A stretch of DNA of 39,347 nucleotides from a virus (IMGVR_UViG_3300006097_000020:1-39347); one strand, 5' to 3'. Counted from the stretch's first letter, positions 2,254 through 39,347 are shown. Translations and numbers: made by a program. Notes: generated from the letters alone by a model not told the origin.

Positions 2254-2569
2254 ATAAATAAAATGATAATGCTATTAGCCAGTAATTTACAATTAAAATA
2301 TCTGTATAAAATTCATTTATTTCAAAGTTAAGATAAAACATCAAATTTATCCAGCACAATAATGCCTTAAATGCTATAACAATATAAGAAAAAATCTTCA
2401 ATCTTGCTTCTTTTATGATATTTGAGAGAATTATCAAAAGGCTGATAACAAGAAAATTCTCATTCAGATATAAAATGGTGCTCCAGGTTCTGGAATATTC
2501 TCCCCAGAATACCCAAATCAGGTAAATTATCAGATAAAGCGTAAATGTGAATGATAATTTTTGTCTCAT
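2225..2569 (-). CDS. Polytopic membrane protein (3-4 TM), function unknown
   Basis: 114 aa, almost entirely hydrophobic helices, very AT-rich. Overlaps its neighbours in operon fashion. Confidence 0.5.
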   Translation of the reverse strand: MRQKLSFTFTLYLIIYLIWVFWGEYSRTWSTILYLNENFLVISLLIILSNIIKEARLKIFSYIVIAFKALLCWINLMFYLNFEINEFYTDILIVNYWLIALSFYLYASNKRIYQ

Positions 2570-3411
2570 TTTAGGTTGTATTGGTAAATTTTTGCGCTGT
2601 CAGCTCCAATTTCATATAGTTTCGTCCCGTCCGGTTTAAAAAATAAATCTGATGGAGAAATATCCTGTGTTGAAATATTTAGATTATCATAAGTTGCTGT
2701 TGATAAGTCCCAAACTGTCGATAATGTAGATTGATAAATTAAATCAAAGGTTGGCCCAATTTCGTATAGCTTTGTTCCGTCCGGTTTGAAAAATAAACCA
2801 AGTCCAGAAATATTGTTAGTTGTAATGCTAATACTATCATAATTCATTGTATATAAATCCCATGCCTGACTTAAAGAATATTGGTATATAGTTGCCGGTT
2901 CGCCTACTAAATATAATTTACTTCCATCATATTTAAAGAAAAATTCTAATGGATTAGAATTTTGTGCATCTACATTTAGATTATTATAAATTGCTGTCGA
3001 CAAATCCCATGCTGTCGATAAAGAATATTGATAAATTTTAGTAGAATTATTCCCCAATTCATATAATTTCGTGCCATCTGGCTTGAAAAATAAACCTAAT
3101 GGCGCTGTATCTTGCGTTACAATGCTAATACTATCATAAGTAGCAGTAGATAAATCCCACGCCGTTGATAAGGTGTATTGATAGATTGAATCACCATCGC
3201 TTCCGATTTCATACAGTTTCATGCCGTCCGGCTTAAAAAATAAACCTTGCGGAGCTGCATCTTGCGTCCCAATACTCACCCCCGAATATTCATAACACGT
3301 AATATCCCACGCTTCACACACTCTCCCGGCGTGCGACCAGAAAAAATTCCCCTGTCCGAACGAAGACAGGCTAATTAAAATAATCCCTGATAAAAATTTT
3401 AGTCTATTCAT
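2566..3411 (-). CDS. Signal-peptide protein built of five ~50-aa tandem repeats (beta-propeller/lectin-like)
   Basis: 281 aa. N-terminus MNRLKFLSGIILISLSSFGQ. Five repeats of Y-Q-Y-x-L-S-T-A-W-D-L-S-T-A-x-Y...G-L-F-F-K-P-D-G-T-K-L-Y-E-x-G. DNA copies of ccgtccggtttRaaaaataaa lie at 2627, 2777, 3074 and 3224, with a divergent copy near 2924 (150-nt period). Confidence 0.6.
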   Translation of the reverse strand: MNRLKFLSGIILISLSSFGQGNFFWSHAGRVCEAWDITCYEYSGVSIGTQDAAPQGLFFKPDGMKLYEIGSDGDSIYQYTLSTAWDLSTATYDSISIVTQDTAPLGLFFKPDGTKLYELGNNSTKIYQYSLSTAWDLSTAIYNNLNVDAQNSNPLEFFFKYDGSKLYLVGEPATIYQYSLSQAWDLYTMNYDSISITTNNISGLGLFFKPDGTKLYEIGPTFDLIYQSTLSTVWDLSTATYDNLNISTQDISPSDLFFKPDGTKLYEIGADSAKIYQYNLK

Positions 3412-22803: not shown

Positions 22804-23574
22804 TTATTTGCGACCAAAATGTTTTCGCCAATCAACAAAGTGATGCGGACGTCCAAACCGAATTACAACATCTACATACTGTGGCCATACTTTTTGCAGC
22901 ATTTTAGCTTTCAAGAGTTTTTTGTCGTATGAGTTGTTCTTGTAGAGTTCAGTTTGATTACCACCTTTCATTTTGGCAACAGTCGATGTTTTATTTATTA
23001 AATAAAGCTGGCTTGAGGCTGTGATGCCCCCGTTATGCAATACTTGAAGACATAAGTCAACATCCTCATTATACTTAAGTCTCCATCTGTATTTAAGATT
23101 ATTTTTTATCAACAAAGCTGAGTAAACATGACAATTGATTTTAAATGCTTTTCGCGGCGGTTTAGTAGAAAAATATCTGTATTCAAAGCCAGATATATCG
23201 ATATTGTATTTATTAACAAAATCTTCAACGAATACTAAAGCCTCATTATAATCATATATGTTTTTTTTCTTTCCGCCCTGCCATTTGCAAAATCCTCTGA
23301 TGTTGTCATCGAACAACCAGTGATATTTGTGTCCATTTTTTTTTGCATGCTCCCAGCAATAATTCCTTGCAGGATAACTCCCAAGCCCTAAATCAGAAAA
23401 AGGCAATTTTAAAATCTTGCTTGAGTCAATTACTTCTGAATATTTTTTAAATTCATGTGGTTCGACAGCAATTAGATAATCAATTTGATGTTCGTCAAAA
23501 TATCTTGCTGTTATAGGATTATAGTATCGCCCTTTTGATATTACATAGACTGGGTATTTATGCTGACCTGCCAT
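22804..23574 (-). CDS. GT-A-like glycosyltransferase-type protein (tentative)
   Basis: 256 aa. The N-terminal beta-strand YPVYVISKGR, then HWLFDDNI (DxD-like) and later NEDVDL, resemble nucleotide-sugar transferase folds. Overlaps the ParB-like gene by 34 nt. Confidence 0.35.
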   Translation of the reverse strand: MAGQHKYPVYVISKGRYYNPITARYFDEHQIDYLIAVEPHEFKKYSEVIDSSKILKLPFSDLGLGSYPARNYCWEHAKKNGHKYHWLFDDNIRGFCKWQGGKKKNIYDYNEALVFVEDFVNKYNIDISGFEYRYFSTKPPRKAFKINCHVYSALLIKNNLKYRWRLKYNEDVDLCLQVLHNGGITASSQLYLINKTSTVAKMKGGNQTELYKNNSYDKKLLKAKMLQKVWPQYVDVVIRFGRPHHFVDWRKHFGRK

Positions 23575-24104
23575 GCCTGTCCTTGTTTTTTAGCATTTAT
23601 ATTATACTTTTTTAAATATCTTTCAGCAGCATCTTTGTTTTCAAAAATAAAAACGACTCTTTGAACGTCTGTTTTTGCACCAATTTCTCTAAGTTCTTCT
23701 TCATCTAACAGAATATCATCTTCTGACATTTCATTAGCATTATTCCATATACTAACATCTACGCCCCACTGATTAATCTCATCTACATTCCACTCAGATC
23801 TGATCATTTCCCAATCCCATTCCCCAAAATTTTCATTGTCGATTAAAATAAATCGACGTTGTTCTTCTTCTGTTAATTCTGATGCCTTCTTTATCCAGGT
23901 ATCAGGAATTTCTTTATATCCAAGATCAATTAAAGCCTTTAGCCGCTGATTGCCGCCTAATATCATATTATTATCGTCGACAACAATTGGCCTTAGGGCC
24001 ATCATTTTTGGAAATTCCGCAATAGATTTCTTTAATTTTTTAAATCTTTCATCTCTGATAAATCTCGGATTATCAGGATTTGGTTTTAAGTCTGAAATTT
24101 TCAT
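23541..24104 (-). CDS. ParB N-terminal (ParB/Srx) domain protein
   Basis: 187 aa. ISDLKPNPDNPRFI ... PIVVDDNNMILGGNQRLKALIDLG is the ParB-like nuclease/CTP-binding domain signature. Confidence 0.7.
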   Translation of the reverse strand: MKISDLKPNPDNPRFIRDERFKKLKKSIAEFPKMMALRPIVVDDNNMILGGNQRLKALIDLGYKEIPDTWIKKASELTEEEQRRFILIDNENFGEWDWEMIRSEWNVDEINQWGVDVSIWNNANEMSEDDILLDEEELREIGAKTDVQRVVFIFENKDAAERYLKKYNINAKKQGQAWQVSINTQSM

Positions 24105-24105
24105 C

Positions 24106-24279
24106 TCAAATGCATTCTTTTACGAAAAACAGGAATAAGACTAAAAACATTATCAAATTTACAATTCTATTTAGCCATTTCCAAATTTTTACGTTTTGTC
24201 TCTCGGTTTTGAGAGATACTCGGCGATGTGTATCTCTTATCATATCGCCGACTGTTGGAATCTCTTTGTTTGTTTTCAT
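24106..24279 (-). CDS. Small tail-anchored membrane protein (start trimmed to MKTNKE)
   Basis: The track ORF 24106..24357 has an N-terminal extension that is simply the translated 56-nt repeat block. The ATG at 24279 follows that block. C-terminal TM helix IVNLIMFLVLFLFFV. Confidence 0.45.
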   Translation of the reverse strand: MKTNKEIPTVGDMIRDTHRRVSLKTERQNVKIWKWLNRIVNLIMFLVLFLFFVKECI

Positions 24280-24285
24280 GGTTTT

Positions 24286-24341
24286 TTTATTTAACGATAA
24301 TTTATTATGCATCATTGACGCTATATATGTGTTATGCCTCA
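24286..24341. repeat. 56-nt intergenic repeat block, copy 1 (partner at 28014..28069)
   Basis: tttatttaacgataatttattatgcatcattgacgctatatatgtgttatgcctca matches the partner at 51/56 positions by hand alignment. Both copies sit immediately 5' of a small-gene start codon. Confidence 0.85.
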
Positions 24342-24580
24342 GCTTCAAAAACATCAATGCTTACAAAGGCTTCTTTTCTCAAGTATATTCCGTTTGTATA
24401 TTGATGTAAGAAACTGATTTGTTCATCCTTAGTCATTTTTTTAGATGATTTAAAGAAGCCTGTGCCAACAGTTCTACCGTTCTGTTTACTTGTAACCGAA
24501 AATCTATAACCAAAAGCCGAAGGCATAACACCGTGTATAGTGCATGGCTCGGTTTGTGTTTTATTTGATGTATTTTCCAT
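24332..24580 (-). CDS. Hypothetical protein
   Basis: 82-aa ORF. Its 5' end carries the recurrent TATACACGGTGTTATGCC motif, and its stop codon lies inside the 56-nt repeat block. Confidence 0.45.
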   Translation of the reverse strand: MENTSNKTQTEPCTIHGVMPSAFGYRFSVTSKQNGRTVGTGFFKSSKKMTKDEQISFLHQYTNGIYLRKEAFVSIDVFEAEA

Positions 24581-24676
24581 TATATTAATTTTTTACTTGT
24601 TCGATACTTTGGTGCTATTTATACGCCACGACACCATACACGTGGCACGTTAGAAAATATTTGCTTACGCGCAGTT

Positions 24677-24853
24677 CTAAGCCTTAAATTTAGCCCCAAC
24701 CACTCTCTCTAATTCCTCTAACTCATTTTTATTTAAAATCACCACGCTTTTATATCCATCAATAAACTGAGTTATTACAATAGATTTATCTGTATAATCA
24801 GCATATTTCCTTTTAGAAGTGTTCTCGCTTAATATTGTTATAGTTGTTTCCAT
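24677..24853 (-). CDS. Hypothetical protein (start trimmed to METTITIL)
   Basis: Starting at the ATG at 24853 removes a 59-nt overlap and leaves 1 nt after the upstream stop. Confidence 0.45.
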   Translation of the reverse strand: METTITILSENTSKRKYADYTDKSIVITQFIDGYKSVVILNKNELEELERVVGAKFKA

Positions 24854-24854
24854 T

Positions 24855-25079
24855 TCAGTCGGTTTTAATCCAATAATTCCAAATTCCTTGTGCCCACGAA
24901 TATGCGTAAACAAATGTCATTATTAATATTCCCCATTGCTCATTTTGGATCGTTGTATATACCCAAAATGGTTGTCCACACAATCCTAATATATAGCCCC
25001 ATCGTTTCCATTTTTCAGTTCTACTCACAAACCAAATTGCTGAAGCTCCAAAAATCATAATTGCTATTTGTGAAATCAT
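24855..25079 (-). CDS. Small 3-TM, Trp-rich membrane protein
   Basis: 74 aa with three hydrophobic helices and many Trp/Tyr (GQPFWVY, YAYSWAQGIWNYW). Function unknown. Confidence 0.5.
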   Translation of the reverse strand: MISQIAIMIFGASAIWFVSRTEKWKRWGYILGLCGQPFWVYTTIQNEQWGILIMTFVYAYSWAQGIWNYWIKTD

Positions 25080-25191
25080 CCCGCTAAACGTTTTCTAACA
25101 AGCTTGTAATATGCCATGCCTGTTAAGTTAGTGCCGTTTTTTTTCTGTATGAGGCTTGCACGGCACATACAAGCCGGGACGTTGGCAGCAA

Positions 25192-25374
25192 TTAAGAATA
25201 CTCAATCACCACCACATCCATAGTATCATCTTCTTCGGGTGCGTTTGCGTCCCACAACTCTATCTCTTTAACCGTGTAGGCTTTCATATAGTCAAACTCT
25301 TCACCTTGCTGAATCATTACCTCTTTTTCTGGGTCTTGCTTTTGAAGCTCTGCAATCAATTCTTTTACTTTCAT
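25192..25374 (-). CDS. Small acidic hypothetical protein (start trimmed to MKVKEL)
   Basis: The track start at 25398 is a TTG inside an inverted-repeat arm. The first ATG is at 25374. Confidence 0.45.
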   Translation of the reverse strand: MKVKELIAELQKQDPEKEVMIQQGEEFDYMKAYTVKEIELWDANAPEEDDTMDVVVIEYS

Positions 25375-25480
25375 CTGATTAAATTTAACTGCTGCCAACA
25401 GGTCGGTATAAACAAGCCGCCGACAGCTATTTACAAATTTTGAACAGACTTACAAGGCGGCCTGTTCATACCGCCATAGC

Positions 25481-25510
25481 GTTGGCAGCACATTAAAACG
25501 ATTGCACAAC
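25481..25510 (-). repeat. Intergenic hairpin, family copy A (loop ATTAAAACG on the plus strand)
   Basis: gttggca(25481..25487) pairs with tgc-a-caac (25503..25510) with one bulge. The loop contains attaaaacg. Flanking sequence 25491..25578 is about 77% identical to copy B by hand alignment. Confidence 0.7.
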
Positions 25511-25573
25511 ATGCAATATAAAACATGCTTAGCGTCGTGCTTCGTAGTATCGTTTGTGCTAAATTCACCATAA

Positions 25574-25993
25574 TTAAATTTTTTCTTTACCCACGCTCTC
25601 AAAATAGAATATTCCGTCAAATGGCTTTGTTGGAGTAATTCCAAAATATGAAGCCACTTTATTTAAATATTCCTTTTTGCGTTTAGATTTTTCAGTTCTT
25701 GGATTCTTTGGTTTATCCAATCTTTCGTGCAATCCGCCTAAAAACCAAGTTCTAAATGTTTCCAAGTCTAAAGACCCTTTATAGTGGTTAATTATTTTCT
25801 GTACAGGCACAAGATTTTCATCACAATGAGCATCAGGAAACATTGAAGTTCCATCCCACCAATTTCTAACAAGTGGCTTTATATGTTCAACTTGCCAATC
25901 ATCTTCAAGTGGCGTTCCTGAATAAGCACAAAGCCCACCAAACTTTTGCTTAATTTCTTCTCTTTGTTTTTTACTGATATATCCCACACTCAA
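25574..25993 (-). CDS. HNH endonuclease
   Basis: 139 aa. GGLCAYSG...WQVEHIKP...DENLVPVQKIINHYK gives the His-Asn-(His/Asn) beta-beta-alpha-metal signature. The track start is a TTG, so the true start is uncertain. Confidence 0.65.
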   Translation of the reverse strand: MSVGYISKKQREEIKQKFGGLCAYSGTPLEDDWQVEHIKPLVRNWWDGTSMFPDAHCDENLVPVQKIINHYKGSLDLETFRTWFLGGLHERLDKPKNPRTEKSKRKKEYLNKVASYFGITPTKPFDGIFYFESVGKEKI

Positions 25994-26056
25994 AAAATTT
26001 AATTATTACTGTTGTTCTTCGATTCAAACTTTGTGCTGTAAATCCGCCCATACTAA

Positions 26057-26095
26057 GGCATAACATTGTGTATAAGAAATAGGGGCTGTTGTGCC
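26057..26095 (-). repeat. Intergenic hairpin using the same GGCAyAACA / TGTTGTGCC arms (copy G)
   Basis: ggcataaca (26057..26065) and tgttgtgcc (26087..26095) form a 9-bp stem (one G:U in RNA) around a 21-nt loop that contains TATA. Confidence 0.6.
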
Positions 26096-26182
26096 ACCAT
26101 TCAAGGATGTTAATGAATTGAGTTGTACACCTCGCATCAAAGCCGTTAGCCAAATTCCCCTACTTCTCATACACAAGTACCG

Positions 26183-26497
26183 TTAGGCTTCATTTTGCCC
26201 AACGCTCTGAATATCATCTCTTAATCGGTGCATCCATCTATAATAATGGTCAGGTAAGAATATCCGCTGTTTTCGTTCGTCAAAGTCAACCATTACACCC
26301 CATCCGCATTCACACAAAAAGGCGAAGTGATAAAGGAATTTTGTAAACGGCCCAATCATTTCACCTGTCATTGTTGAATTGCACACCTCATTTTGATAAT
26401 CTTCGTCATCTAACCAGCGGGTAATTTCCTGCTTTGCTATTTGTTCCCACGATTTCAATTTACGTGGTTCATCTACTTTGTATTTCGGTTCATTCAT
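26183..26497 (-). CDS. Hypothetical protein
   Basis: 104-aa ORF. No motif recognised. Its stop lies inside GCCTAACGG. Confidence 0.5.
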   Translation of the reverse strand: MNEPKYKVDEPRKLKSWEQIAKQEITRWLDDEDYQNEVCNSTMTGEMIGPFTKFLYHFAFLCECGWGVMVDFDERKQRIFLPDHYYRWMHRLRDDIQSVGQNEA

Positions 26498-26590
26498 ATT
26501 TCAGTTATTTAATTCCAACGCTAAAAACGAAAGCCTAACAGCACCTATACGTCAGCTTCCTATCGTCAGCCGAACGCATAGCTGCATCAC

Positions 26591-26620
26591 GTTGTGGCGC
26601 ATTAAAACGGCGCCCACAAC
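26591..26620 (-). repeat. Intergenic hairpin, family copy C
   Basis: gttgtggcgc (26591..26600), loop attaaaacg (26601..26609), gcgcccacaac (26610..26620). This is a 10-bp stem with a one-base bulge and the same loop as copies A and B. Confidence 0.7.
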
Positions 26621-26995
26621 AGCAATCTAAAATATACTTACCCGAAAGCAACGAATGCCCAACAATGGGTATATTGCATGGCGGGGTTTCTGCTTGTATT
26701 TGAGTTTCTTTCATCTATCTAAGTTTTTGTTTGTGGACATCTGTTCGGCTTTGAATCCGCCACTGTTCATACCCGCAGCCGTGAGCGTCTGCATAAATTC
26801 ATGCATTTCTATTTTCTTTGAGTTTTTCCAATCGGTTCTACGATCATCTGAATTTTACAATTTTATTCAATCTATGAAAAAGAGAAATTGCTTCTTTCTC
26901 TCTCATCGCTGAAGTCAGTTGTTTTGCTCCGTCGAAAACTTCATATAACCCTTTACTTGTCTTACTGTTTCTAATGTTTAAAGATTGATATAATT

Positions 26996-27415
26996 TCATG
27001 ATTTCTGATATTTATTGATTATTTTAACAATTTCAAAATGTCTGGAAGGAATGGTTTTTTTTGTTAACAAGATATATCGATTTTGATTTTCGAAAATTTT
27101 ACCATGCCAACGTGGTTTGTCATTAATTAAGTAGATTTCTTTCATAAAGACTTTTCCAAGAAAACGTTCTATGCAGGCGCCTTTTGATTGTTTCCAGTCC
27201 GGGATCAATAACACTTTGTCAGATTTCAAAACGTTAAAGAAAGCAGGTATCATATAGAATAACCACCTTTTTATTCCTAAGAAAGGCTTAACATAGATAG
27301 GGTTTATAATTTTTACACGACCAAAATCTTTTCGAATTCTGGCTTCGTAGGAGACAAATTTGGTTATGTAGTTTTCATCTCCACTTATTTTCCCTGAAAT
27401 GTAAATTGTTTTCAT
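26996..27415 (-). CDS. DUF4406-like (nucleoside 2-deoxyribosyltransferase-like superfamily) protein
   Basis: 139 aa. MKTIYISGKISGD ... INP ... LKSDKVLLIPDWKQSKGACIE follows the DUF4406 pattern (iYisGpitG ... NP ... cD.v..l.gW..S.Ga..E). Confidence 0.5.
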   Translation of the reverse strand: MKTIYISGKISGDENYITKFVSYEARIRKDFGRVKIINPIYVKPFLGIKRWLFYMIPAFFNVLKSDKVLLIPDWKQSKGACIERFLGKVFMKEIYLINDKPRWHGKIFENQNRYILLTKKTIPSRHFEIVKIINKYQKS

Positions 27416-27417
27416 AT

Positions 27418-27621
27418 TTATTTAAATTCGTGAAAGCGTCTAAATTCATCTCCGTAAACTTCAACGCCTTTGATCTTTTCAAGCGTCGGTATAATGTTTC
27501 TATCTTTAATCTTAATCCACCTCGATACAAGACACTTAGTTCCAATTCTTCTATCAAGTGGTATCTTCTCAATATGTCTTTTAATATCCTCTATGTCGTA
27601 ATTCTCTGGCATAAGCATCAA
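27418..27621 (-). CDS. Hypothetical protein
   Basis: 67-aa ORF ending 2 nt before the next start. Preferred over the overlapping frame 27375..27572. Confidence 0.4.
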   Translation of the reverse strand: MMLMPENYDIEDIKRHIEKIPLDRRIGTKCLVSRWIKIKDRNIIPTLEKIKGVEVYGDEFRRFHEFK

Positions 27622-27835
27622 TTTTTATGAGGTTAATCATAACTCTGAATGCAAAGAATAAAGACAAAAGGACTACTAATATCTGCCATATTCCTGATGC
27701 CGGGAATATGGTTCCCGCAAATGAAATTAAGACAAATGAAATTAATGCATTGAAAAAGCATTTCCTCAATTGAATTATTGTCATTCGTCTAAGTTCTTTT
27801 TTTGATAGCTTCTTGAAGTCAACTATTGTTTTCAT
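27581..27835 (-). CDS. Small 2-TM membrane protein
   Basis: 84 aa with helices ALISFVLISFAGTIF and ILVVLLSLFFAFRVMI. Confidence 0.45.
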   Translation of the reverse strand: MKTIVDFKKLSKKELRRMTIIQLRKCFFNALISFVLISFAGTIFPASGIWQILVVLLSLFFAFRVMINLIKIDAYARELRHRGY

Positions 27836-27839
27836 ATTG

Positions 27840-28007
27840 TTAATGTTCTTTGTTTTTAGGACTTAAATACTTCTCAGGACACTGTCCTAATTCGTATAAC
27901 CGACAAATGTTTGTCCCGTTGCCGCTAAACGGCACAAAACATTCTCTTTTTCTGCATTTATCAGAAAGAACCAAATACTCTTTTTTGTTGTATCTTATTG
28001 TAGCCAT
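27840..28007 (-). CDS. Small Cys-rich protein (start trimmed to MATIRY)
   Basis: The 47 N-terminal codons of track ORF 27840..28148 are the translated intergenic repeat (copy B plus the 56-nt block). The ATG at 28007 follows the block, as at 24279. Confidence 0.45.
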   Translation of the reverse strand: MATIRYNKKEYLVLSDKCRKRECFVPFSGNGTNICRLYELGQCPEKYLSPKNKEH

Positions 28008-28013
28008 AATTTC

Positions 28014-28069
28014 TTTATTTAACAATAATTGATTATGCGTCATTGACGCTATATATGTGTTGTGCTTCA
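28014..28069. repeat. 56-nt intergenic repeat block, copy 2 (partner at 24286..24341)
   Basis: tttatttaacaataattgattatgcgtcattgacgctatatatgtgttgtgcttca. Contains the perfect 13-bp palindrome gcgtcattgacgc at 28037..28049. Confidence 0.85.
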
Positions 28070-28097
28070 TTAAAACGAAAGCACAACATGGTATATA
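28050..28097 (-). repeat. Intergenic hairpin, family copy B (longest stem)
   Basis: tgttgtgctt (28058..28067) pairs perfectly with aagcacaaca (28079..28088). The loop is cattaaaacga. Outer tatata arms (28050..28055 and 28092..28097) can extend the stem. Confidence 0.75.
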
Positions 28098-28151
28098 AGC
28101 CATGCTTAGGTCTGTGCTTCGTAGTGATGTTTGTACAAACTTGCCCATAAT

Positions 28152-28901
28152 TTAAAAAGCCCCTCCCGCTTCGGTTTTTTCAAAACCGTTTGGTATAAGT
28201 TCTGTAAGCAATTCACGTTCCTGTGTAAAAATAGGTGGTTCTGTACTTACCCATCTTGTTCTCAATGCACCGTTCTTCTCGTATTGTTCCTTTACAATTA
28301 ATCTACCCCGTTTAAGTTTAGGTTCATAATCGTTCCAGTTAATACCTTTTTGAAAACACATTTCTTGCATTTCACCTATGTCTTTTCCGTGCAATTCTCT
28401 TGGGCTATATAGGTATTGTGCAACGCTACTAATACTATTCCTTATTGTGTCTTGCTGTCTCCAAATCAAGTAATTCTCAACTTCAACGGCTGTTGGTATT
28501 GTAAACACACGGCTGTCAAATAAAGCAATCTTATTTGGTCGTAATTCATTAAATTTTGCAGTTGCCATACTTGCACTTATACTTGCCATTTTTTGTATAT
28601 TTCCATCAAACCAAGCATTAGTACCTAATTTTTCAAAATCAGTAAGTAAAATACTTATTTCATCACTTTGCACAAATGCCAATTTTGCTCCCTGAATATT
28701 CTTGCACATATAGCAAGCAGTTTCATCCATATCTGAAATTAGTTTTGCATCAAAAGGTCTCTCAAGCCCTCTTGTGTAAGTATGAAATGCTTTGCCATCT
28801 ACACGTATAATTGTGTACGTTCTTCTTGGGAGTAAGCTTCGAGTTCTATTTTCGTAAAACTCCTTCATTCTATCTCCTAAGCTATCTTTTTTATTTGCCA
28901 T
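28152..28901 (-). CDS. Thg1-like protein (tRNA-His guanylyltransferase family, 3'-5' nucleotidyltransferase)
   Basis: 249 aa. MANKKDSLGDRMKEFYE...YTIIRVDGKAFHTYT...AFVQSDEISILL reproduces the Thg1/TLP N-terminal palm motifs (RxDGxxFH and SDE carboxylates). Confidence 0.7.
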   Translation of the reverse strand: MANKKDSLGDRMKEFYENRTRSLLPRRTYTIIRVDGKAFHTYTRGLERPFDAKLISDMDETACYMCKNIQGAKLAFVQSDEISILLTDFEKLGTNAWFDGNIQKMASISASMATAKFNELRPNKIALFDSRVFTIPTAVEVENYLIWRQQDTIRNSISSVAQYLYSPRELHGKDIGEMQEMCFQKGINWNDYEPKLKRGRLIVKEQYEKNGALRTRWVSTEPPIFTQERELLTELIPNGFEKTEAGGAF

Positions 28902-28997
28902 CGCTTCGCTTTTTAAATTATTACTGTTGTTCTTTGTAGTTAGGTTTGTTGGTTAATCCGCACAGCTCATATACCTGTCCGTTAGAAACAAGCTCCG

Positions 28998-29879
28998 TCA
29001 TTCACATAAATGATAGTAGCTTGAACATGAAATAGGGCTGTCCTCTGCGAATAAATCAATAGTCGCATTTTTAGCTTCTAAATATCGTTTAACATCTTCG
29101 GCGGTTGTGTATTTTTTCGCAGTTCTTTTGCATACACCTGACTGGCTGTGTTCAGGTACAAAGTCAATTTTAAAGAAAGAGGAACCTATTCGCTTTTCAT
29201 GCTCAATAATTTCATCAAACTTTTTCGGGTATCGCTTTAATATTTCGTAAACTTCACGATGCCCTGACATAATGCAAGGGAAACAACCAACTCGCTTAAA
29301 CCCTTCTTTGTAAAGCGTATTAGGTTTCTGACCGTTTTCAATAATGTAATCAATAACTTCCTGACCAGACCAGTTGAAAATTGGTCTTAAAATGTCATCA
29401 GAGTATTCCTCACACCACATTTTCACATCTTTTTTTCTGTATGTATGCGTTTTGCCATTGTCATTATACGGTTCAAAATAGTATTTAAAATACCTGCATT
29501 GTCGCTGCATTAAACTTCTATTATGGCTTTCCTGCGCTCTAATTCCCTGTATTATCAACAAGTGTTCTTTTTGCTTTAGAACATAGTCAATAAAAGGGAT
29601 AGATTTTAATTCAGAAGTGCAGAACCGGGCCATCGTTGACGGAAATCTTTTTTTCTTTTCTGCCAGGTCAATCATTCCATCGTATTTTTTGCTTTTGACA
29701 GTAACAAGTTTTACACCCAATTCAGAAGTAGTTTCTTTAATATGCTTATAGGTAACTGGATGTTCCCATCCTGTATCACAAAATACAGCTTCCACATTTT
29801 TAGCACCGTATTTTTTGACCGTCCACAAAAGGCAGGCTTGTGAATCCTTACCTCCTGAATATGCTACTAATATTTTCAT
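28998..29879 (-). CDS. PP-loop ATP pyrophosphatase, PAPS reductase / DndC-like family
   Basis: 293 aa. MKILVAYSGGKDSQACL (SGGxDS PP-loop), FCTSELKSIPF, GIRAQESHNR and RVGCFPC (similar to the DndC-type GCWxC). Confidence 0.7.
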   Translation of the reverse strand: MKILVAYSGGKDSQACLLWTVKKYGAKNVEAVFCDTGWEHPVTYKHIKETTSELGVKLVTVKSKKYDGMIDLAEKKKRFPSTMARFCTSELKSIPFIDYVLKQKEHLLIIQGIRAQESHNRSLMQRQCRYFKYYFEPYNDNGKTHTYRKKDVKMWCEEYSDDILRPIFNWSGQEVIDYIIENGQKPNTLYKEGFKRVGCFPCIMSGHREVYEILKRYPKKFDEIIEHEKRIGSSFFKIDFVPEHSQSGVCKRTAKKYTTAEDVKRYLEAKNATIDLFAEDSPISCSSYYHLCE

Positions 29880-29966
29880 AAAAATTTGATTTTAATTTGG
29901 CCGCCAGTTTCTAACAAGCGGTCATAAACAACTCCGCTACGCTCCGCAGTTCATACCGCCAGCCCG

Positions 29967-30581
29967 TTAGTGGCAATTAAAGTACAGGTCAACTTGTTGC
30001 TTCTCGCTTTGTATGCCAATGTCGGTGTAACTTACATTAGGTTTTTTATCTATGTCGGCTTTAAAACAGCATGGTATATTTACCAAATGTATTTCCGAAT
30101 ATCCGTGTAGCATTTTAAGGCAGTCGCTTATTTTAGCGTGTGAGTGTACACAAACAACCACCGCACTATTATTTTCTCCTTCAAATGTTAATTCTTCTGC
30201 TTTGTTTTTATATGTTTCTAAGCGTTTAATATTCCATTGTTTCTCCCGCATTTGTGGGTCTATGCTTTTAACATTCCATTTCGTCAAGCAAGCTATTAGC
30301 GCACCTGTCCGTGGGCTGTGTCCATCACCTACTACATACACATCAACATCGTCAGTACGGCTTACATATTTATCAATTAGGTGGTCTTGTATTGCCACAA
30401 ATGCTCCCACACTCTCGGTTATTTCTTTAATATTCGGAAATACTTTCGCGCTCATTAGCAACGGGGCGGTATTCATTTTAAAAAACCTATGTAAATATCG
30501 GTTGTCATAGAAATAACTGCCACTAACACCGTGTAATACGGCATTGCCTTGTGGCTTTTTTGTTACTGTATCTGTATTCAT
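29967..30581 (-). CDS. Rossmann-fold methyltransferase-like protein (uncertain)
   Basis: The track start at 30602 is a TTG. The first ATG (MNTDTV) is at 30581. VDVYVVGDGHSPRTGALIA...SIDP resembles SAM-binding motif I and the post-I acidic residue. VVCVHSHA...PCC follows. Confidence 0.35.
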   Translation of the reverse strand: MNTDTVTKKPQGNAVLHGVSGSYFYDNRYLHRFFKMNTAPLLMSAKVFPNIKEITESVGAFVAIQDHLIDKYVSRTDDVDVYVVGDGHSPRTGALIACLTKWNVKSIDPQMREKQWNIKRLETYKNKAEELTFEGENNSAVVVCVHSHAKISDCLKMLHGYSEIHLVNIPCCFKADIDKKPNVSYTDIGIQSEKQQVDLYFNCH

Positions 30582-30646
30582 ATCTTTAGTTCTTTTAATC
30601 AAATTTGTACTGTATTTAAAGCGGCAACGACCGCATACACAAACCG

Positions 30647-31429
30647 TTATGCGCCATGCCGAAAGACCAAGATACTTTCGTGTTGCACCCTGCTTTTTGC
30701 ATTTTGCCCGAAACCCATTCTTGGAGTTTCGATTTTAATTTCATCAATAAGTTTCATTCCAAAATCTAACAATGTTTGTTTATGCCAATCAACCACGTTT
30801 ACAATTTGCCCTTTTCTAATATGGTCAGAAACATTCACAATCATCAATCCATTTGGCTTTAATACGCGCAAACATTCCTTGTAAATCTCAATATGCTTTT
30901 GTCGGTACTTTACACCCCATTGCATCCTTCCAGTATTCTCTTCATTTAATGGTCTTCCCAAGAAATGTCTGTAAGTAATGCGCTTGCTTCCATCTTTCGC
31001 TTCAAAGTGGTCTGCCATTCTGTTACCATAAGTAGGGCTTGTACATATAGCATCAAATTCGTGATTCGCAAATTGCAAATTAGCCGCATCACCTATACAC
31101 CATTCATCAACATCATATTCAGACGCATTAACCCATTCAGGTTCAATTTCATTGCATACCACTTTTCCGCTAAATCCGTAATCCTTAATAAGAGCAAGTT
31201 TCCCGACACCGCCGAAAGGGTCAAGTACGTTACTACAATCTTTTAGTAATTCCGCAAATTTTGGAATAAAACTATCAGTGTATTTTGCAGGGTGCTTTAC
31301 GGAAGAAGGCACAGGCGCATAACACGTGCTATAAGCAATAGCGGTGTCCGTGTTATCCGAAAGTTCCTGCTTTTTATTATCGTTTGTCATATTATGAAAG
31401 TTTATCGTTTTTAATCCGCTACTGCTCAT
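30647..31429 (-). CDS. DNA methyltransferase (N6-adenine / N4-cytosine type)
   Basis: 260 aa. VLDPFGGVGK (motif I, FxGxG-like) precedes AICTSPTYGN (motif IV, a (D/S)PP(Y/F)-like variant SPTY). LKPNGLMIVNV lies downstream. Confidence 0.65.
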   Translation of the reverse strand: MSSSGLKTINFHNMTNDNKKQELSDNTDTAIAYSTCYAPVPSSVKHPAKYTDSFIPKFAELLKDCSNVLDPFGGVGKLALIKDYGFSGKVVCNEIEPEWVNASEYDVDEWCIGDAANLQFANHEFDAICTSPTYGNRMADHFEAKDGSKRITYRHFLGRPLNEENTGRMQWGVKYRQKHIEIYKECLRVLKPNGLMIVNVSDHIRKGQIVNVVDWHKQTLLDFGMKLIDEIKIETPRMGFGQNAKSRVQHESILVFRHGA

Positions 31430-31456
31430 AGCACCATTCGTTAGAAGTAATAAATC

Positions 31457-31690
31457 TTATAAATCTCTTAACTTCTTAGCCCATTCAGAATAAGGTGTGA
31501 TATTTTTATCTTTTAATCCGCTTTTTGAAGAAGATTTACCACTTCTAACATCAGATATGTTTAATTTACCTATCACAAATTCACAAAAGTCTATAATATC
31601 TTCTTGTGCATCCCAAACTTCATCACAACTTTCCTTAATTACCTCACCGAAGTAATAATCAAATAATTCATTTATTTTATCTCTTTTCAT
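31457..31690 (-). CDS. Hypothetical protein
   Basis: 77-aa ORF. No motif recognised. Confidence 0.45.
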   Translation of the reverse strand: MKRDKINELFDYYFGEVIKESCDEVWDAQEDIIDFCEFVIGKLNISDVRSGKSSSKSGLKDKNITPYSEWAKKLRDL

Positions 31691-34336: not shown

Positions 34337-35008
34337 TCAAATAACTCTGTATTGATTTGATCTAAATGCTTTTTTTACTTTTTCTATATCATCGTTTTTG
34401 TCGTTCTTTTCCCAGGTTCTGACAGCAGCTTTCCAGTCCTTCATCTTATTCTTTCCAATCATCCAGTTTTTTGCTGTGTAAAAGTCGAACCAACGCTCAG
34501 CATCCACATCGTTGTTTCTTTCCTTACAATATTTTTTGACATCATCTAAGGAAGGTGGTGTAAATCTTGGCGTTTTAGCCACACTATTATTCTTTTCATT
34601 CTTTTCATTCTTTTCATTCTTGTTTGTTGTTAGTTGCTTGTTAGTTGCTTGTTGGTTGCTTGTTAGTTGCTTGTTAGGTTGCTTGTTGTCTTCGCCAATT
34701 GCACGATTGTAATTATCATAGTTATAGATAGTTATTAACGAAAATCGATTGTTAGTTTGCCTGTTGATTTCTCCTGTTTTTTCTAATTTTTTTAAACAAG
34801 ACCTTAATGTCTGAATTGAAATATTTGTTTCTTCATGAAGTTGCTTCAATCCAGTTATCAATTGCCCTCTTTTAACTTCAATTCCACGCCAGTTAATTGT
34901 TTCGTGATTAGCCTTAAGCAGTAGGTGAACGAATAAGTGTACCATTTCACTTATATCGTACCATTCCCAATCAATGAATTTCCTGTGTAATTTGATCCAT
35001 CCTTCCAT
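34337..35008 (-). CDS. Replication initiator / replisome organiser (winged-HTH N-domain), start trimmed to MEGWIKLHRK
   Basis: MEGWIKLHRKFIDWEWY... followed by a wHTH-like segment (QTLRSCLKKLEKTGEI), a low-complexity linker that holds the iterons, and a C-terminal domain DDVKKYCKERNN...WFDFYTAKNW. The 20 upstream codons of the track ORF are a translated terminator hairpin. Confidence 0.6.
   Translation of the reverse strand: MEGWIKLHRKFIDWEWYDISEMVHLFVHLLLKANHETINWRGIEVKRGQLITGLKQLHEETNISIQTLRSCLKKLEKTGEINRQTNNRFSLITIYNYDNYNRAIGEDNKQPNKQLTSNQQATNKQLTTNKNEKNEKNEKNNSVAKTPRFTPPSLDDVKKYCKERNNDVDAERWFDFYTAKNWMIGKNKMKDWKAAVRTWEKNDKNDDIEKVKKAFRSNQYRVI
34591..34617. repeat. 3 x 9-nt direct repeat (tcttttcat)
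   Basis: Copies at 34591..34599, 34600..34608 and 34609..34617. They encode NEKNEKNEK in the initiator linker. Confidence 0.8.
34631..34686. repeat. Five tandem 11-nt iteron-like repeats (tagttgcttgt)
   Basis: Units at 34631, 34642, 34653 (tggttgcttgt), 34664 and 34675 (12 nt, taggttgcttgt). The period is not a multiple of 3, so the repeat is read in all three frames of the initiator ORF. Confidence 0.8.
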
Positions 35009-35093: not shown

Positions 35094-35157
35094 CTATTGA
35101 ATTATTATTTAATCCTGATTTTTTCATTGTGGATGTATTTGTAGAGGCAAATATAAC

Positions 35158-39107: not shown

Positions 39108-39347
39108 TTACAAATAGTCTTCTGCTAACAATTCGGCCTGTTCTTTGCAGTGCGAATAGATTTCTAAGTCTTCGCTGTCTTCTTCAAATTCAGGCGCATC
39201 CTCGGCATAATTATAAATAATGCCAGATTCGCCTTCATATTGTAAAGCATTCGAGTTTTTAGCAACATCTTCAGCAGAATATTTGTCTACTATTTGAAAA
39301 ATTGCGCCCGTATTGTCGACCGCATGCTCGTCGTCCAGTTGGACAAA
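39108..39347 (-). CDS. C-terminal segment of the junction-spanning hypothetical acidic protein (see 1..151)
   Basis: Open from the window edge down to TAA at 39110..39108. Reads ...IVDKYSAEDVAKNSNALQYEGESGIIYNYAEDAPEFEEDSEDLEIYSHCKEQAELLAEDYL. Confidence 0.7.
   Translation of the reverse strand, partial: FVQLDDEHAVDNTGAIFQIVDKYSAEDVAKNSNALQYEGESGIIYNYAEDAPEFEEDSEDLEIYSHCKEQAELLAEDYL
39293..39347. repeat. Terminal direct repeat, copy 2 (identical to 1..55)
   Basis: Direct comparison of the two window ends. Confidence 0.95.

Follow-up and report, generated by a model that had tools for sequence, protein, structure and literature searches.

Gene-bracketing inverted repeats and spacer hairpins in the accessory region of a Bacteroidota phage, and their possible role as attC-like recombination sites

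Brackets and spacer hairpins in the accessory region

We have analysed a viral DNA of 39,347 nucleotides (IMGVR_UViG_3300006097_000020:1-39347, here called the window, always at its full length), a complete phage-like genome of ~39.3 kb with a G+C content of 37% and nearly all of its genes on the minus strand. Its accessory genes are set in a system of two kinds of helix, gene-bracketing inverted repeats (A-type) and spacer hairpins (B-type), which spans 31.5-24.3 kb on the minus strand (the coordinates of all elements are given for this strand) and is the subject of this work. Positions 1-55 are an exact 55-nt direct repeat of 39293-39347, which shows the genome to be complete, with the contig either assembled as a circle or terminally redundant. 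The gene layout is lambdoid, with an Erf annealing protein and a RecE-like exonuclease, NinG, a DnaD-like initiator with DnaB, the accessory region, a ParB-like gene with a TET-associated glycosyltransferase, and then the terminase and virion genes. The accessory region contains DNA methylase, PAPS-reductase-like, Thg1-like and HNH genes and many small open reading frames (ORFs). Canonical Bacteroidetes promoters (TTTG-N20-TATATTTG) were found on the minus strand at 35155 and 637, upstream of the replication-initiator gene and of ORF 224-598, confirming a Bacteroidota host and showing that the host consensus is in use outside the arrays. Megablast against the GenBank phages gave no close relative of the window and ARAGORN detected neither tRNA nor tmRNA genes in it. 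With the gathering scores of Rfam 15 no covariance model matched anywhere in the window, and a permissive scan (E <= 5) of the region 23.8-28.6 kb returned nothing but noise.

The A-type bracket is a cassette-specific inverted repeat, GTTRNNNNN...NNNNNYAAC, found around almost every accessory gene. The complete helix consists of an outer T.G pair, the GTTRNNNNN:NNNNNYAAC arms and ~5 further pairs inside. The brackets were quantified in the loci of relatives described below, where the motif TATA-N4-6-TGTTR that precedes the hairpins is present at 149 sites on the gene strand vs 29 on its complement. For each site the 9 nt from GTT onwards were taken and their reverse complement was sought up to 1.5 kb downstream, with the reversed word as control, and an exact partner was found for 88 of the 149 sites vs 4 for the control. 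About 30 of these 88 sites are short hairpins and ~58 surround complete ORFs, their interiors measuring 42-1147 nt. The length of the inverted repeat always stays within 9-11 nt, and among the 53 distinct arm pairs the positions 5-9 use all four types of Watson-Crick pair. The pair just outside the repeat is a conserved T.G (71 of 87) and there is a conserved G.T inside the arms (44 of 60), while the other inner positions pair in 77-82% of cases vs 42-59% with shuffled partners. The stop codon is either within the 3' arm (TAAC) or in the TAAAT/TAGTAT immediately before it, and start codons are located 4-100 nt past the 5' arm. Genes are normally carried in the bracket loop and in some cases in that of a spacer hairpin. 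Pairing was also measured in an unbiased way, defining the arms by their outer flanks only and in loci fetched through a recombinase protein (see below) instead of the DNA element. The covariation score was 0.301 vs 0.166 +/- 0.015 for shuffled pairs (none of 500 shuffles reached the real value), and controls with slid arms scored 0.12-0.15.

The spacers between brackets form the second helix, a spacer-specific hairpin of 16-20 bp in which a D strand following the 3' arm (consensus G-N4-GTATATGAGTAGTAGCC) pairs with a P strand preceding the next 5' arm (consensus GGCTATTACTTATATAC-N3-T). When the 30 nt that follow a 3' arm were paired with the 26 nt at the far end of the same spacer, next to the 5' arm, the D:P duplex had -26.8 kcal/mol vs -11.7 +/- 0.8 for shuffled partners. 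An RNAalifold alignment of 16 spacers, three of them from the window, yielded 16 pairs; 12 of them show compensatory changes, and 13 of the 16 spacers keep a conserved G.U. The eight B-type spacers of the window pair at -25 to -38 kcal/mol. The spacer palindromes measure 50-190 nt and two thirds of them fall in classes of 79-81 or 115-120 nt. The P and D strands that flank one and the same cassette, which would extend the bracket outwards, showed no specific pairing (-8.9 vs -8.7 kcal/mol).

A preliminary description of the region, made from the sequence of the window, had recognized in it a family of three intergenic hairpins (copies A, B and C) with an invariant loop and covarying stems. Folding against shuffled sequences supported B and C. 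Hairpin B (28087..28059) reads GTTGTGCTT-TCGTTTTAATG-AAGCACAAC and folds at -14.1 kcal/mol (z = -4.3); hairpin C (26620..26591), with CGTTTTAAT as its loop and a stem of 10 bp interrupted by one bulged G, folds at -14.3 kcal/mol (z = -1.9). Copy A (25510..25481) folds no better than chance (-6.1 kcal/mol, z = 0.0) and is a hybrid site, its 5' arm GTTGTGCAA and its 3' arm TGCTGCCAAC being parts of different partners and the latter coming from the next cassette. This 3' arm forms the base of a palindrome of 106 nt, 25493..25388, with a folding energy of -56.4 kcal/mol (z = -7.2). Three exact matches to the 9-mer CGTTTTAAT are present in the window, each on the minus strand and at one of the three copies, vs ~0.3 expected by chance. 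The invariant loop TCGTTTTAATG is composed of the two inner flanks of a bracket (CGTTTT... and ...AATG), joined where there is no gene between them, and the three copies share it because this is what an empty loop reads. Far from a stand-alone family of three or four hairpins with a loop read by a protein, these are the cargo-less members of a bracket and spacer system that extends over ~7 kb. We had also considered a loop-specific protein-binding hairpin of the nut/boxB kind and dropped it, since the loop corresponds to the fused inner flanks of empty brackets.

The flank shared by A and B could be confirmed and measured: it covers 88 nt at 78% identity, starting at the stop codons of the HNH and Thg1-like genes. 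In hairpin B it corresponds to the P strand of the spacer helix of the Thg1-like gene plus the inner flank. What had been taken for a second small hairpin within it (CATGG-cttatata-CCATG) is one strand of a long-range helix whose partner is found 890 nt upstream, beyond the Thg1-like gene. The right flank of B is 85% identical to 24270-24341.

The brackets and hairpins of the window form two arrays. Array 1 starts with a bracket at 31440..31549 (GTTAGAAGT...ACTTCTAAC, interior of 92 nt), the least certain of all, followed by a spacer hairpin of the 117-nt class at 31324..31439 (D GGTGCTATGAGCAGTAGCGG : P CCGCTATTGCTTATAGCAC, -35.2 kcal/mol) and by the bracket of the DNA methyltransferase gene at 30646..31323 (GTTATGCGC...GCGCATAAC), which has the stop codon in its 3' arm. 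A spacer hairpin at 30528..30645 (-26.3 kcal/mol) leads to the bracket of an unknown 204-aa ORF at 29966..30527 (GTTAGTGGC...GCCACTAAC), and a 50-nt spacer without a strong hairpin (29916..29965) to the bracket of the PAPS-reductase-like gene at 28981..29915 (GTTAGAAAC...GTTTCTAAC). The following unit, at 28088..28980, is a B-type helix with cargo, carrying the Thg1-like gene in its loop (D:P at -25.6 kcal/mol), and the array is closed by hairpin B, an empty bracket at 28059..28087. The exit sequence, 27998..28058 (ACATATATAGCGTCAATGACGCATAAT...), is 85% identical to that of array 2 and resembles the YAAC|TATTATATATA junction found before recombinase genes in relatives.

Array 2 opens with hairpin C at 26591..26620, an empty bracket with the arms GTTGTG-G-GCGC / GCGCCACAAC and the bulged G, followed by a spacer hairpin of the short class at 26540..26590 (-26.5 kcal/mol), the bracket of a 104-aa ORF at 26182..26539 (GTTAGGCTT...AAGCCTAAC) and a spacer hairpin of the 117-nt class at 26065..26181 (-33.8 kcal/mol). 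The 3' strand of the latter, together with the 5' arm of the next bracket, makes up what had been listed as a fourth hairpin site (26057..26095), which is no variant of the other hairpins. An outer bracket then runs over 24331..26064 (GTTATGCCT...AGGCATAAC, interior of 1716 nt) and spans the HNH gene, site A and three inner brackets. Site A (25481..25510) retains an intact 11-nt core between its two mismatched arms. The overlapping 106-nt palindrome (25388..25493) is attC-shaped, with the order 3' arm TGCTGCCAAC, D, loop, P and 5' arm GTTGGCAGCA; its spacer hairpin, 25400..25480, is of the 80-nt class and has a D:P duplex of -37.7 kcal/mol. Further along are the bracket of a 60-aa ORF at 25181..25399 (GTTGGCAGC...GCTGCCAAC), a spacer hairpin of the 80-nt class at 25100..25180 (-28.3 kcal/mol), a bracket with two small ORFs at 24649..25099 (GTTAGAAAA...TTTTCTAAC), a spacer hairpin of the 117-nt class at 24530..24648 (-28.8 kcal/mol) and the last unit, the bracket of a 65-aa ORF at 24331..24529, with ATG in its 5' arm GTTATGCCT and TAA in its 3' arm AGGCATAAC. 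The exit sequence occupies 24270..24330 (ACATATATAGCGTCAATGATGCATAAT...), and both arrays have the common end ACATATATAGCGTCAATGA(C/T)GC.

Two 5' arms of the window have no partner nearby. One, GTTGGGCAT at 26662 (within 26654-26673), has no partner. The other is the arm GTTATGCCT of the outer bracket at 26064 (26056-26064), whose sole complement is 1.7 kb away, in a 3' arm that also serves the bracket at 24529. Both are probably scars of past rearrangements.

Relatives, the linked recombinase and exchange of units

We searched public collections with a pattern that fixed only GTTGTG, CGTTTTAAT and CACAAC and left the inner stem bases free. This yielded 50 loci, 26 viral and 24 from genomes, mostly of Bacteroidota. 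The inner triplets were complementary in ~44 of the 50, with at least six different triplets (including CTT/AAG, CAA/TTG, GTG/CAC, GCA/TGC and TTG/CAA), so that the selection on structure proposed from the three copies of the window holds across relatives. In nearly all loci the elements lie between genes and point in the same direction as those on either side. From locus to locus these genes mostly encode unrelated proteins; no shared one was found in these 50, DNA methyltransferases being the commonest, and yet the distance to the upstream stop codon takes only certain values (20-24, 50, 63-64 or 86-88 nt). Hairpins with unrelated stems can also be capped by the identical 11-nt loop, frequently as tandem pairs, and one such case is found in Cellulophaga phage phi39:1, close upstream of terS.

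Cultured phages carry the element as well. In Cellulophaga phage phi39:1 a bare double hairpin (907-975 of locus L053) is located between the last early gene and terS, and a distant blastn search recovered the hairpin only in the Cellulophaga phages phi39:1 and phi19:1 and, weakly, in Nonlabens phage P12024L. Polaribacter phage P12002L (NC_028924) has brackets around gp35, a DNA methyltransferase, and around gp37, with empty spacer hairpins between them (29237-31120 of locus L117). Long arrays of the same brackets were also found in Bacteroidota chromosomes (loci L128, L130, L146, L166 and L175), where they are located at about 6.8-12.7 kb of each locus and have spacers of 115-119 nt. These chromosomal arrays belong to Aquimarina (including the complete chromosome of Aquimarina sp. 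W85), Cyclobacteriaceae, Mangrovivirga and Salegentibacter, and are placed on the strand opposite to a 43-48% identical tyrosine recombinase, with their start 45-165 nt beyond the 3' end of its gene. A single cassette (arm GTTAGCTCT) is repeated four times in L166.

In four of the first 50 loci a tyrosine recombinase of 266-288 aa begins just past the last bracket. Its best models are XerA/'integron integrase', XerC/D and IntI, mostly under their cut-offs, and only the protein of locus L034 passes that of XerA_Arch. The closest solved structures are the archaeal XerA (4a8e, 5hxy) followed by IntI4 (2a3v), the latter in two stretches. A search seeded with the recombinase protein retrieved 63 viral loci, and in these the brackets on the recombinase strand were concentrated on one side of the gene, 195 in 278 kb upstream vs 21 in 322 kb downstream. 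The distance from the last YAAC to the start codon of the recombinase is 36-37 nt in 14 loci and 39-100 nt in ~20 more, and a junction YAAC|TATTATATATA is conserved before the recombinase genes. In the 63 phage loci the recombinase follows the last cassette and is co-directional with it, while in the chromosomes the two are convergent. Co-directional arrays in bacterial genomes were found only with closer homologues of the recombinase, those with identities of 51% or more and a single one with 43%.

Gene content changes between relatives exactly at the elements, as the preliminary description had suggested examining by synteny. Loci L064 and L066 are 100% identical from TAAC into and through the recombinase gene and unrelated upstream. 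The unit of the window that carries the Thg1-like gene, together with hairpin B (28984-28050), is 93% identical to a contig of a Prolixibacteraceae metagenome-assembled genome, with both ends of the similarity at YAAC and unrelated flanks. Among 17 pairs of loci with a common upstream flank, 10 diverge at the hairpin. Furthermore, in locus L035 (2442-3417) a bracket in the orientation of the array surrounds a 298-aa ORF encoded on the opposite strand.

A possible integron-like cassette platform

Integrons are regarded as bacterial and, lately, archaeal devices and are rare in phages, and clusters of attC sites lacking integrase (CALINs) are the form in which their cassettes occur without the enzyme. 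The two covarying helices and their gene-bracketing topology, the neighbouring recombinase, with homologues beside the chromosomal arrays, and the breakpoints at YAAC lead us to favour, with moderate confidence, the reading that the elements of the window are attC-like recombination sites of an integron-like cassette platform in a Bacteroidota phage, the hairpins being units devoid of cargo. Recombination sites that shuffle the accessory genes are, of the four functions that had been put forward for the hairpins, the one with the best support, which comes from the breaks in gene content and from the coupling to a tyrosine recombinase. The folded strand would be the substrate of the small recombinase of the Xer/IntI clade that in relatives is encoded directly after the last YAAC of the array, and strand exchange at or next to YAAC would excise, insert and swap whole units. 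In this way accessory genes such as the DNA methylases and the Thg1-like, HNH and PAPS-reductase-like genes could be shuffled. The arrays of the window resemble CALINs since they have no recombinase of their own. They may be acted on in trans by a co-resident phage, a prophage or the chromosome, or they may be relics that still provide homology to the Erf/RecE-like recombination system of the phage.

The likeness to integrons extends to many details. Co-oriented, mostly single-ORF cassettes are separated by imperfect palindromes with AAC...GTT boundary motifs, and the 5' end of each cassette complements its own 3' end, as measured above by the exact 9-nt partners and by the covariation score. 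Repeats within a lineage are highly similar, like the VCR repeats of Vibrio. A tyrosine recombinase of the Xer/IntI clade adjoins the array, arrays without integrase also occur, and the cargo is rich in DNA methyltransferases. In Polaribacter phage P12002L the identical element was assigned to attC by HattCI (PMC9892861). The bracket with the reversed ORF in L035 has its counterpart in reversed integron cassettes. By their topology (YAAC, D strand, loop, P strand and GTTR, with strong spacer-specific pairing) the elements may count as attC sites, but the purine/pyrimidine pattern of the core (RYYYAAC/GTTRRRY) is only partly kept.

The system works like an integron, yet it departs from integrons in several of the features that define them. 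The complementarity of the cassette ends is of ~15 bp and encloses the ORF, vs a 7-bp R box in integrons, cargo is carried inside hairpin loops, and the apparent crossover is located after YAAC instead of at G|TT. Other features weigh directly against recombination at these sites by an integron-like enzyme. The main difficulty is the wobble bias: single mismatches are 12 G.T vs 1 A.C, and it is on the gene-sense strand that the conserved wobbles occur, which suits RNA as well as top-strand DNA, whereas canonical attC sites fold from the bottom strand. The recombinase, with its 266-288 aa, does not qualify as an integron integrase with the IntI-specific additional domain: it stays under the curated cut-offs of TIGR02249 and NF011946 and matches them in two stretches. 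Its gene adjoins the 3' end of the array, reading in the same direction in phages and towards the array in chromosomes, whereas intI with attI stands at the 5' end and is usually divergent. A crossover at YAAC leaves the location of ORFs inside hairpin loops unaccounted for, and tblastn found no tyrosine recombinase of the array-linked type in the window. To these has to be added an experimental result from the literature. Qi et al. screened 10,705 phage genomes in 2023 and found 3 complete integrons and 17 CALINs, one of the latter, with the site 'attC1', in Polaribacter phage P12002L (PMC9892861). The primer for this site, TGCTAAC-GGCTAC-GGCTAAACGG-TCGTTTTAATG-CCGTTTTAGCC-ATT-GTTAGGC, corresponds exactly to one 3' arm, the empty spacer hairpin behind it and the 5' arm that comes next in the element described here, and attC1 was the one site that IntI1 failed to recombine (PMC9892861). 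Our literature search retrieved no account of the bracket architecture, of the linked recombinase or of their spread in Bacteroidota phages, and when done by sequence string it returned primers only.

Alternative explanations and wider distribution

The main rival, since the wobble pairs favour the gene-sense strand, is a scaffold made of RNA, which we consider unlikely although clearly the most serious of the alternatives. The polycistronic transcript of the early/accessory genes would fold into long-range brackets alternating with spacer hairpins, and cuts by a double-strand-specific endoribonuclease of the RNase III type would release single-gene mRNAs with paired ends; in a variant, the helices would stabilise the RNA, block Rho loading or gate translation, with start and stop codons lying in the helix flanks. 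Besides the excess of G.T mismatches, such a scaffold would agree with the conserved wobbles of both helices (read as U.G in the outer pair of the brackets and as G.U inside the arms and in the spacer helix), with the intergenic and co-oriented position of the elements in nearly all loci, and with stops in or just before the 3' arm and starts shortly past the 5' arm. The combined helix, ~15 plus 16-20 bp with internal loops, also has a length that suits RNase III. In the early mRNA of T7 and in rRNA operons there are likewise helices between or around the cistrons of a polycistronic unit, and the rRNA processing stems bracket the mature product as the A-type helices bracket ORFs. The T7 sites are local hairpins without gene-specific covariation, and neither the T7 nor the rRNA stems are linked to a recombinase or to cassette exchange at the DNA level. 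An RNA scaffold leaves unaccounted for the fixed distance of the array end from the recombinase gene, the swaps of units exactly at YAAC between near-identical contigs, the bracket orientation kept around an opposite-strand ORF and the chromosomal arrays convergent to the recombinase, and no Rfam family matches. Processing by RNase III, already named in the preliminary description, is a live but weaker rival to recombination, while its proposals of an attenuator and of small RNAs found no support. For the attenuator we tried a model in which the 3' arm of a cassette pairs with the 5' arm of the cassette that follows, a structure incompatible with the hairpin, and discarded it, the excess of pairing being only marginal (4.93 vs 4.64 in the control). 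RNA and DNA levels may both be in use.

A regulatory cassette comparable to the PeSLs of T4-like phages, that is, a composite promoter and terminator in which the TATA would be a -10 box and the hairpin an attenuator, shuffled only by homologous recombination through Erf/RecE, seems improbable to us. These PeSLs are the nearest regulatory analogue. They are conserved intergenic stem-loop cassettes of ~100 bp located in hyperplastic regions of small orphan ORFs (PMC2839356, PMC4122927), and gene content changes between relatives at the elements. Here too, ~100 nt of intergenic sequence are conserved between otherwise unrelated genes, with mosaic breakpoints within, and genes for Erf, a RecE-like exonuclease and NinG are present in the phage. 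PeSLs include a host promoter with the consensus sequence as well as a terminator whose activity has been tested, and their recombination is homologous (PMC2839356, PMC4122927), whereas the elements described here have gene-specific stems and a linked site-specific recombinase, and lack the Bacteroidetes -33/-7 consensus (TTTG-N19-21-TAnnTTTG) that the window does have at 35155 and 637. Sites resembling those of sigma-70 are fewer than expected from shuffled sequences. What looks like a TATA box is one strand of a helix and no promoter, because the block covaries with its partner as the 3' strand of the spacer-specific hairpin; for this reason we also rejected the promoter reading of TATA-N5-TGTT, proposed from its strand bias (149 vs 29 sites), the frequent presence of an ATG 18-35 nt further down and, in 30 sites, a GCAC box 16 nt ahead of it. 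No intrinsic terminator was detected at the sites by a terminator scan; no U-tract follows the hairpins, and the sequence after CAAC is mostly G and mixed bases. Homologous recombination alone would produce neither gene-specific brackets of 9-10 bp nor the link to a recombinase.

Readings in which the element codes for a small hydrophobic peptide (M..KL..TL.RST.LSM.YI.CCA[FI]VLM[KL]HN), open across the long-flank class in several loci, or mimics a Cas13b-type CRISPR repeat as an RNA anti-CRISPR, such repeats having a GTTG start, a CAAC end and a U-rich centre, are effectively refuted: the frame of the loop 9-mer differs between copies A/B and copy C, the short-flank class has no ORF, coding cannot explain compensatory stem changes or unrelated stems under the same loop, no array of the repeat was found in 596 Gb of genomes (there are 1-2 copies per 8-kb locus, with freely varying stems), and neither reading accounts for the gene-bracketing repeats.

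Returning to the attC-like sites, a wider and more tentative proposal, to which we would give somewhat less than even chances, is that Bacteroidota tailed phages and some chromosomes carry a second kind of integron, with a short Xer-like recombinase instead of IntI, top-strand double hairpins, crossover after YAAC and cargo in the loops. Phages would use it to capture and reshuffle genes for DNA modification, anti-defence and other accessory functions, and the window would be one of its integrase-less arrays. What can be seen already is that many uncultured phages of Bacteroidota, and at least three in culture (P12002L, phi39:1 and phi19:1), have their accessory region organised by one architecture, with its own recombinase family and with matching arrays in Bacteroidota chromosomes. 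If recombination were confirmed, it would provide a concrete mechanism for the mosaic 'moron' regions of these phages, a route for cassette exchange between phage and host, a new recombinase/site pair with rules unlike those of IntI/attC and a means of reading gene boundaries in phage dark matter. The question of how cassettes are born would also become more testable, because the ORFs sit inside hairpin loops.

Some other features of the window deserve mention. The accessory cargo at 22804-24104 and 28152-31429 is rich in genes for nucleic-acid modification, and the TET-associated glycosyltransferase adjoins a ParB_N protein. The set formed by the glycosyltransferase and the PAPS-reductase-like, DNA methylase and Thg1-like genes suggests hypermodified DNA and anti-restriction functions. 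Within the ORF of the DnaD-like replication initiator (34337-35008) there are 4-5 tandem repeats of 11 nt (GTTGCTTGTTAG) at 34622-34677, which resemble an origin of the iteron type placed within the gene of the initiator, comparable to that in lambda O. Finally, in the virion module, ORF 2566-3411 contains four tandem repeats of ~150 nt (2606-3246) with identities of 67-74%.

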